In this document: one piece after another, positions 193-722 of the stretch
Position numbering within the stretch: the stretch's first letter is position 1
How the letters are laid out: each line of letters begins with the position of its first letter
Virus record (IMG/VR): IMGVR_UViG_2713896768_000025
Origin: a virus
Lineage: Duplodnaviria > Heunggongvirae > Uroviricota > Caudoviricetes
Strand: one strand, 5' to 3'
DNA: 4,110 nt
Program-made: the position numbers and the translations under genes
Notes under the pieces: generated by a model
What the model saw: the letters and a program-made list of their open reading frames with translations, nothing else
The model's database searches: none
What the model was told of the DNA's origin: nothing

Positions 193-294
193 GAATCCTC
201 CCGGCCGGGATAATGTTGTGAGTCAGATAAGGGGCGGGCTGAAGTCCGGAAGTTACAGGACAATGACAGAAGGAAGACTACAGCCCGCAATACG

Positions 295-319
295 AAAAAG
301 GCCGCGCAGTTGCGCAGCC
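295..319 (-). terminator. Terminator-like hairpin with T-tract on the minus strand
   Basis: Imperfect stem 300-307 / 312-319 (GGCCGCGC / GCGCAGCC, one C-A mismatch), loop AGTT. A5 at 295-299 on the plus strand gives a U5 tract after the hairpin for minus-strand transcripts. Lies about 100 bp upstream of the 1-192 gene. Confidence 0.3.
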
Positions 320-379
320 TTATAAACCCTGGTTAAAATCCACACGATAAAAATGACAATGCAAGTATCTCATGCTGTT

Positions 380-404
380 GCCCGAACCTACTCGGGCTTT
401 TTTT
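380..404 (+). terminator. Rho-independent terminator (plus-strand orientation)
   Basis: Perfect 6-bp stem GCCCGA (380-385) / TCGGGC (392-397), 6-nt loop, followed by T7 (398-404). Confidence 0.5.
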
Positions 405-410
405 GCATGT

Positions 411-435
411 AAAAAGGCTCCTGCGATGAGGAGCC
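411..435 (-). terminator. Rho-independent terminator (minus-strand orientation), likely ending the tRNA cluster transcript
   Basis: Perfect 7-bp stem GGCTCCT (416-422) / AGGAGCC (429-435), 6-nt loop. A5 at 411-415 on the plus strand gives a U5 tract after the hairpin on the minus strand. Forms a back-to-back module with the 380-404 hairpin. Confidence 0.5.
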
Positions 436-722
436 TGGATATATGCCTAATCTCTGTATACAGCATGATGCCGGGTGCCTCCCGGTGAATTCTGCAATGA
501 CCAGACAGAATCCGCAACTTGCCTATACAATACGCAACCAAACATCTGTCATTATGCCCCGCCGCCCAGGGGGATTCATCATGCAGGATTTTTTTAACAA
601 ACGCTCAGCATGTCAGGCAACAGTCAACTGCCTGAATTGTGAGGCATTTAACATTTCACTGCCCGGTGTCTTTCCTGTAATAAAAAGCCCGAAAAAGAGA
701 GTCAGGGCAGATAAGTGTGGTG

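Follow-up and report, generated by a model that had tools for sequence, protein, structure and literature searches.

The question raised by this locus was what lies between the tRNA genes and the nanS-p-like esterase gene of a prophage in which stx is absent. The original prediction regarded the interval 193-722 of the window (the whole stretch of DNA analysed, 4,110 nucleotides) as an empty toxin slot of roughly 530 bp that was occupied only by terminator hairpins. The analysis presented here leads to another answer: with a probability of about 0.88, 193-722 is a small-RNA module that is conserved among lambdoid prophages of the Stx type and is made up of two convergent sRNA genes. Because Tree et al. 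(2014; PMC4104026) described the convergent Hfq-binding sRNA pair, flanked by the moron site and by the nanS-p-like esterase gene in eight Sakai prophages, the feature is an ordinary and already known one, and nothing new is claimed for the window itself.

The gap and the site of stx2AB

The window belongs to the late region of a lambdoid prophage of the Stx type, and its genes are directed mainly along the minus strand. The gap is framed by the following features.

4063-3707, Q antiterminator gene (PF06530, E 2.5e-45)
1716-1003, AraC-family regulator gene
899-974, minus strand, tRNA Met/Ile2(CAT) by ARAGORN, labelled tRNA-Ile by PGAP
813-889, minus strand, tRNA-Arg(TCG) by ARAGORN
723-799, minus strand, tRNA-Arg(TCT) by ARAGORN
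682-722, minus strand, spacer downstream of tRNA-Arg(TCT), homologous to the argO-stx2A segment of the Stx2a phage
643-681, no strand, site taken by stx2AB in Stx2a phages: 39 bp here versus 1341 bp there (L001 4442-5782)
193-293, minus strand, 5' untranslated leader of the esterase gene, with the Shine-Dalgarno sequence GGGAGG just before the ATG at 192-190
1-192, minus strand, 5' part of the nanS-p-like SASA-family esterase gene (DUF1737 N-terminus, PF08410, E 2.3e-17), which runs off the window

The AraC-family gene and two low-GC ORFs without annotation constitute the cargo between Q and the tRNAs, on the side where the original prediction had placed it. In the identical DEC9B prophage, the esterase gene was assigned by PGAP to the SASA family in its 645-aa class, and it is followed by holin, lysozyme and lysis genes. 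The whole window was found at 100% identity in 4 complete E. coli genomes, one 81-bp indel excepted, and the 530-bp gap was detected at ≥80% coverage in 757 of 5426 complete E. coli genomes. Prophage Sp9 of strain Sakai aligned with window positions 35-976 at 89% identity, and both Rfam matches described below (STnc100 and AgvB/AsxR) recurred in it.

The coding potential of 193-722 was then considered. Two ORFs overlap the gap, one of 116 aa on the plus strand that extends into a tRNA and another of 73 aa on the minus strand that spans both terminators. Small protein genes were rejected because neither ORF had a match in a Pfam search, both frames are disrupted in the Stx2a homologue by indels of 6, 1 and 2 nt, and PGAP annotated nothing in the gap in the 30 best-matching genomes. 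The expectation that the gap would hold no convincing ORF was thus borne out.

In phages of the 933W/Sp5 type, the stx2 locus consists of Q, the late promoter, ileZ-argN-argO, stx2AB, EcOnc27/AsxR and nanS-p. The order and orientation of the genes on both sides of the toxin site are the same in the window (tRNAs 91% and sRNA module 84.5% identical), whereas the Q allele differs and the window carries the AraC-family gene plus the two-gene low-GC cassette between Q and the tRNAs. The Stx2a-converting phage LC616031 was used as reference to delimit the slot from blastn break points. Positions 92-642 of the window matched the DNA downstream of stx2B (84.5% identity), and 682-978 matched L001 5783-6073 (91%), a segment that comprises the tRNAs and the 41 bp preceding stx2A. 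The stx2A and stx2B ORFs occupy 4768-5727 and 4487-4756 of L001, respectively, within the 1341-bp cassette, to which the 39 bp at 643-681 are unrelated. Judged from these break points, the toxin slot is a site of about 39 bp (643-681), not of 530 bp; only there does the window correspond to stx2AB. In the Stx2a phage, the AsxR gene (88.1 bits) ends 283 bp from the stx2B stop codon, the published distance being 282 bp.

The remaining 193-642, about 450 of the 530 bp, also occur downstream of stx2B in Stx2a phages; therefore, they represent a conserved module and not a place vacated by stx. No stxA or stxB gene was found between the tRNAs and the sRNA module, which is where these genes lie in Stx-converting phages. 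Searches of the window for stx remnants by tblastn with Stx2A and Stx2B and by blastn-short with the 1341-bp cassette returned only noise. A remnant of stx or of its promoter was consequently rejected; only the 41 bp that adjoin the tRNA are common with the region upstream of stx2A. With the same order of Q, tRNAs of the ileZ-argN-argO type and nanS-p-like gene, the description of this prophage as an stx-negative relative of the Stx phages is upheld. Those 41 bp (682-722) include a degenerate terminator-like hairpin at ~707-682, formed by GCCC...GGGC and T5 and with a weak fold (z -0.6); at the matching spot, a good hairpin followed by a T-run is present in the Stx2a phage and in phage contig L044.

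The two convergent sRNA genes

A search of Rfam was run at a permissive threshold, and membership of a family was judged against its curated gathering score. Two known sRNA families mapped inside the gap, so that it cannot be described as occupied only by hairpins. The genes are convergent, with 3' ends ~6 nt apart, and are flanked by the tRNAs and by the esterase gene. For the minus-strand gene, the features are the following.

405-613, minus strand, STnc100-family sRNA gene (RF02076, 175.6 bits for a gathering score of 47, E 3.9e-41, model positions 1-206 of 206)
588-620, minus strand, promoter-like elements of the STnc100-type RNA: -35 TTGCCT at 620-615 (or CTGACA at 616-611), -10 TTAAAA/TAAAAA/AAAAAT within 597-588
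463-584, minus strand, structured 5' domain, in which a closing helix pairs GCAUGAUG (584-577) with CAUCAUGC (470-463) according to the Rfam structure line
437-462, minus strand, single-stranded stretch UGUAUACAGAGAUUAGGCAUAUAUCC between the 5' domain and the terminator, unpaired in the Rfam consensus

A conserved sRNA recognisable by homology within 440-722, which the original prediction had itself named as evidence against an empty slot, is thus present in the form of this STnc100 gene. The same model scored 175.2 bits with the Sp9 copy and 206.9 bits with the Stx2a copy. Homology identifies the RNA of 405-613 as the counterpart of EcOnc28 (Sp9) and of EcOnc27/sRNA103 (Sp5/933W), with which it shares the full-length model match, the strand, the terminator and the partner; the setting differs from that of EcOnc27, as the sRNA gene follows stx2B in Sp5/933W and comes directly after the tRNAs in the window. 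The RNA was placed on the minus strand because the northern probe used for EcOnc27 matches window positions 432-466, with 4 mismatches. With respect to the Sp5/Stx2a copy, the 3' seed-like stretch and the terminator are nearly identical, whereas the inner hairpins of the 5' domain (~498-575) diverge with indels in the Stx2a phage.

The motifs TTGNYT and TTAAAA are found at constant spacing in the window, in the Stx2a phage and in phage contigs L044 and L017. A promoter scan predicted the start of the RNA at ~581-585, which would give a transcript of ~175-180 nt, and the 5' end of PasD2, taken from published RIL-seq coordinates, maps to the homologous GCAUGG. The indications for the 5' end differ, as it falls at ~584 by the promoter and the analogy with PasD, at 613 by Rfam and at ~640-652 by the sizes of EcOnc27 in northern blots (species of 235 and 247 nt; Tree et al., 2014, PMC4104026). 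The last of these positions coincides with the beginning of the conserved unit.

Within the 5' domain, the inner hairpins contain the invariant core CACCGGGAGGCACCCGGC (487-470). The 25 consensus pairs of the domain were 95.6% paired across 50 non-redundant phage copies among the matches listed, picked by the exact core motif, and changes on both sides were seen in 12, a covariation statistic that ignores shared ancestry. The closing helix contains A-U pairing in the window versus G-C in the Stx2a phage. Taken over its full 209 nt, the RNA folded with an unremarkable minimum free energy (z -1.55); fold energy was consequently dropped as evidence for the family, and the covariance model and the covariation were used instead. 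The segment 437-462 is wholly different among family members, whereas the 5' domain is kept, and the mapped seed of PasD lies at an equivalent relative place. By analogy, 437-462 is the probable base-pairing (seed) region, through which the RNA would most likely pair with mRNAs.

A relationship to PasD was considered separately. PasD2 of EPEC E2348/69 occupies the syntenic place (Q ... sRNA ... SASA esterase), and both PasD1 and PasD2 share the 5' motif GCAUGGUGAAUCC and the overall fold; a common ancestry of STnc100 and PasD has been proposed (Zhu, Shabalina and Storz 2026 preprint, 10.64898/2026.05.13.724894). In contrast, PasD1 and PasD2 have another core and another seed (UGUGAG) and lack a convergent anti-sRNA partner. 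Their scores with the STnc100 model were 41.4 and 37.7 bits, under the gathering score of 47, and the window RNA was 68.7% identical to PasD over 131 nt of the 5' domain only, the seed and terminator region being different. The identification of the minus-strand RNA as PasD was rejected because PasD falls below the STnc100 threshold and carries another seed, and PasD was regarded as a distant relative instead.

Expression of EcOnc27 and EcOnc28 and their association with Hfq were detected by CRAC and northern blot (Tree et al., 2014, PMC4104026). In EDL933, 11 STnc100 copies were found to be transcribed by RNA-seq, one of them verified by northern blot (PMC5331693). A study cited in PMC12711010 and PMC7873438 is described there as having found fimZ and espA transcripts up on over-expression of sRNA103/EcOnc27, and PasD1 and PasD2 had many mRNA partners in RIL-seq (Pearl Mizrahi et al., 2021, PMC8550237).

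When viral contigs were scanned with the core CACCGGGAGGCACCCGGC, at least 120 loci were found. Among the matches listed, the convergent partner could be assessed in 139 usable occurrences; it was of the AgvB/AsxR type in 7 and similar to the E2348C_1409-intergenic sRNA of EPEC in 17, and none was recognised in 115. Some metagenomic contigs contain tandem arrays of the unit with a period of ~253, and in phage contigs L013, L018 and L030 the core stands directly before ORFs, where the full STnc100 model gives no score. Both observations would suit an element whose main effect is in cis, on the late transcript, by way of processing, stability or an antitermination-related leader, the short terminated RNA being a by-product. 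The location of the element in the path of the late transcript would also agree with such a role, as would a 5' domain that is much better conserved than the presumed seed and, unlike it, covaries. However, the element has promoter-like sequences and a terminator of its own, its relatives give discrete Hfq-dependent bands in uninduced lysogens, the related PasD1 and PasD2 have many mRNA partners and over-expression of sRNA103/EcOnc27 alters fimZ and espA levels. A mainly cis-acting role was consequently considered improbable, and the minus-strand gene is treated here as that of an sRNA. 

The features of the plus-strand gene are the following.

346-404, plus strand, EcOnc03, an anti-sRNA of the AgvB/AsxR family, with a 5' variable region at ~346-364 and a conserved 3' body
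310-339, plus strand, EcOnc03 promoter-like elements: -35 TTGCGC at 310-315, -10 TAAAAT at 334-339, start at ~345-351, as read from the sequence

Window positions 351-401 were identical to the published EcOnc03 of Sakai Sp9 in 50 of 51 bases, the single change being a C to T at 389, in the terminator loop. At 345-404 on the plus strand, Rfam gave 56.2 bits for AgvB (RF02702, gathering 56) and 44 bits for AsxR (RF02703, gathering 63). Because the AgvB score is barely at gathering and the AsxR score is below it, the assignment to the group is supported mainly by the near-identity to EcOnc03. The gene is not AsxR proper, the 5' region of which also differs; the copy in the Stx2a phage, by comparison, scored 88.1 bits.

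AgvB1, AgvB2, AsxR and EcOnc03 are the four most abundant of these RNAs, with lengths of 51-60 nt, a common 3' end of ~42 nt and a variable 5' end of 14-18 nt (PMC4104026). In the window, the conserved 3' part (365-401) has one mismatch to EcOnc03 and displays the hallmark of the group, the ~42 nt with the GCCCGA...UCGGGC terminator, and the distance from the -10 element to the U-run corresponds to 51-59 nt, within the range of the group. The sequence AAA-AAU-GAC-AAU at 349-360 fits the A-R-N motif of four repeats with one mismatch (Tree et al., figure S4). Positions 321-345 are identical in Sp9, and CCTGGTTAAAAT is without change in Sp9 and in the Stx2a phage. The published EcOnc03 species of 56, 54 and 51 nt, which are less stable without Hfq (Tree et al., 2014, PMC4104026) and have several triphosphate 5' ends, are compatible with starts at ~345-351. 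Two other Rfam matches, Leu_leader at 233-325 (E 0.18) and Plastid-ycf2 antisense to a tRNA, were dismissed as due to chance.

The gene agrees with that of Sp9 in its whole 5' variable region, promoter and terminator stem, and likewise in being convergent and situated upstream of the esterase gene; it differs in one base of the terminator loop, and its prophage differs in the Q-proximal cargo. AgvB antagonises GcvB and AsxR antagonises FnrS by base pairing (Tree et al., 2014, PMC4104026). In contrast to these two RNAs, no target of EcOnc03 is reported in the searchable literature; its action as a sponge is extrapolated from the two tested relatives, after which the 14-18 nt of its variable 5' end would most likely bind and neutralise a host sRNA.

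Could both sRNA genes be silent in this prophage, or survive there as decaying remnants? This is an stx-negative prophage with an 81-bp deletion elsewhere in the window, and its post-tRNA terminator is degenerate. Nevertheless, the promoter and body of EcOnc03 are those of the expressed Sp9 copy except for one loop base, the STnc100 score equals that of Sp9 (175.6 vs 175.2 bits) and the gap sequence is widespread, being 99-100% conserved in 19 records; hence, decay of the two genes was given next to no credence. Each of the two sRNA genes appears to have its own sigma-70-like promoter and its own intrinsic terminator. From the behaviour of the tested relatives, we infer that both RNAs are made in the lysogen of this strain and bound by Hfq.

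The three hairpins and late transcription

Terminator-like sites were scanned over the whole window, with shuffled sequences as control. The window contained 19 such sites versus 3.7 ± 1.5 in the shuffles, and the three hairpins of the gap were among its four best.

411-436, minus strand, intrinsic terminator of the STnc100-type RNA: 8-bp stem 436-429/422-415, loop 428-423, U-run to 411; -13.5 kcal/mol, z -4.0
380-404, plus strand, intrinsic terminator of EcOnc03: stem 380-385/392-397, U7 at 398-404; -11.1 kcal/mol, z -4.1
294-321, minus strand, terminator-like hairpin 3: stem of 10 bp (7 GC) 321-312/307-298, then a U-run; -18.3 kcal/mol, z -3.5

Two hairpins facing the minus strand and one facing the plus strand had been foreseen, and all three are present within 2-3 nt of the predicted positions. 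Those at 380-404 and 411-436 are the transcription stops of the two convergent sRNA genes, because the matches to Rfam, to EcOnc03 and to the EcOnc27 probe place the sRNA genes there; the hairpin at 411-436 is the terminal hairpin in the Rfam STnc100 model.

The original reading of the interval as an empty toxin-insertion slot, holding just a stack of terminators that insulates the late genes, can be weighed on this basis. Three strong terminator-like hairpins do lie inside 140 bp, in a gap without an ORF and in the absence of stx. On the other hand, two of the three form the 3' ends of sRNA genes that Rfam recognises, toxin phages carry the same 450 bp after stx2B, the slot proper measures 39 bp, and RNAs from the near-identical Sp9 locus have been published from CRAC and northern blots. 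An empty slot is, therefore, very improbable, and the two-gene sRNA module is retained.

The third hairpin (321-298) precedes the esterase leader and shares bases with the -35 element of the EcOnc03 promoter. It shows no change in Sp9 or in the Stx2a phage, along with the EcOnc03/AsxR promoter region. The esterase leader (193-293) is also conserved in the Stx2a phage, L044 and L017. Phage contig L044 keeps hairpin 3 beside this leader though the 5' end of the anti-sRNA differs, and phage contig L017 keeps part of it (the 3' half) though the partner belongs to a different sRNA family. Because it is retained with the leader in both loci, hairpin 3 was read as a putative terminator of the esterase leader, which would give minus-strand transcription a second point of arrest in the lysogen. 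A different origin, in which hairpin 3 would be the ancestral STnc100/PasD terminator and the anti-sRNA an inserted cassette, was downgraded to speculation; the PasD terminator resembles hairpin 3, yet MAFFT pairs it with the STnc100 terminator, and in L044 and L017 hairpin 3 goes along with the leader of the esterase.

In the lysogen, the STnc100 terminator and the hairpin at 321-298 would stop transcription arriving from the tRNA side; we infer their efficiency as terminators. After induction, Q-modified polymerase coming from the late promoter would read through both minus-strand terminators. Antitermination by Q over terminators is the standard logic of lambdoid late genes, and a dependence on Q of the late genes downstream of the minus-strand terminators, which the original prediction had proposed, is a reasonable deduction. 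As in lambda-type control of the late operon, intrinsic terminators stand in the path of the late transcript before the lysis genes and a Q gene (PF06530) is present; in contrast, the terminators of the window are those of sRNA genes and of the esterase leader, at a distance of kilobases from Q.

A possible modularity of the locus, and the meaning of the result

The STnc100-type RNAs may be modular, with a conserved 5' domain joined to swappable 3' seed/terminator cassettes and to swappable convergent partners, EcOnc03 acting as a sponge of a host sRNA. We hold this only as a tentative and rather unlikely reading. Under such an arrangement, the partner would be drawn from the AgvB/AsxR family, in which the 5' end has at least four versions, or from the family similar to the E2348C_1409-intergenic sRNA, and the recombination break points would fall between the back-to-back terminators and inside hairpin 3. 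The 5' domain could then be a scaffold for processing or for protein binding, as hinted by the tandem arrays of ~253 period. A modular organisation was partly anticipated by Tree et al. (2014) and by the preprint of Zhu, Shabalina and Storz (2026).

For the module of two convergent sRNA genes, the value of the result is mostly corrective. The comparison fixes the stx insertion point at a gap of ~39 bp beside the tRNA-proximal terminator, which helps in the comparison of stx-positive and stx-negative relatives. One machine-learning study listed SNPs of EcOnc27 among the top predictors of HUS (PMC12711010).

A stretch left blank by PGAP in all the genomes examined looks empty and yet encodes two regulators of an abundant, Hfq-binding type. 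Among such RNAs, AgvB helps growth in bovine rectal mucus and AsxR de-represses the use of haem. Regulators of this sort are used by prophages to retune the sRNA networks of their host.

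Hairpins and genes flanking the tRNA-Arg(TCT) gene

A hairpin just after tRNA-Arg(TCT) was located in the window and in two related sequences, with the following positions.

682-707, minus strand: window
5783-5817: Stx2a-converting phage LC616031
2990-3022: viral contig L044

This element is a good terminator in both related sequences, the Stx2a phage and L044, where AGGCTCGC-TTTT-GCGGGCCT is followed by a T-run, whereas in the window and in the Sakai prophage Sp9 it is down to a 4-bp stem. Further along, the esterase leader (234-288, minus strand) is able to form a pairing of its own, between GCGGGCUG (288-281) and CAGCCCGC (241-234) across a 39-nt loop, and the outer GCGGGC/GCCCGC of this pairing is conserved in Sp9.

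On the other side, the tRNA cluster is directly adjoined by a regulatory gene, with a small ORF upstream of it.

1003-1716, minus strand: AraC-family HTH regulator gene
1850-2047, minus strand: 65-aa ORF with a weak winged-helix-like match

The AraC-family gene is reminiscent of regulators that EHEC prophages carry, such as PatE/Psr.

The low-GC cassette and the surroundings of Q

Between the antiterminator gene Q and the AraC side of the window, these elements were found.

2167-2232: segment with 82% identity to the DNA that directly follows Q in the Stx2a phage
2189..2177, minus strand: terminator inside this segment
2314-3694, plus strand: overlapping pair of ORFs of 281 and 182 aa, GC 0.31
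3685-3702: G/C-rich hairpin with flanking T-runs on both strands

In the Stx2a phage, the late promoter leader and terminator lie in the counterpart of 2167-2232; in the window, this segment lies 1.5 kb from Q. Judged from this arrangement, the low-GC cassette is placed as though inserted between Q and its leader. The hairpin at 3685-3702, between the Q stop and the end of the cassette, looks like a bidirectional terminator.

Both ORFs are transcribed in the direction opposite to the late operon, the second (182 aa) is hydrophobic, and neither had a match in Pfam or PADLOC; the pair may represent a moron or defence cassette of a kind not yet characterised. Compared with all four complete genomes that match it at 100% elsewhere (JB2, F2_407_2_2, DEC9B and 7_33_46A), the window lacks 81 bp at 3096-3105. 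ORF 2314-3159 is therefore 27 aa shorter here, at 281 aa compared to 308 aa in those genomes; the deletion is in frame and has a 10-bp repeat at its borders.

STnc100 partners, arrays and core motif in other phages

Downstream of STnc100, a second family of convergent-partner sRNAs replaces the anti-sRNA in contig L017 (1960-2000) and, among the matches listed, at 16 other viral loci. Its members follow the pattern ...CUUGCC-GCCCGCG...CGCGGGC-U run and are similar to an EPEC RNA, the E2348C_1409 intergenic sRNA. One partner is swapped for the other at a point between the two back-to-back terminators.

STnc100-type units also occur in metagenomic viral contigs as tandem arrays of 3-5 copies with a period of ~253 nt, among the matches listed.

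L026, 342-1038: tandem array
L041, 1702-2340: tandem array
L078, 4349-5513: tandem array

Every copy has its own terminator and a distinct 3' stretch. In addition, the core motif CACCGGGAGGCACCCGGC was found directly upstream of Shine-Dalgarno-bearing ORFs in three phage contigs (L013, L018 and L030), at sites where the full STnc100 model scored below threshold, which hints at a broader use of this motif as a leader element.
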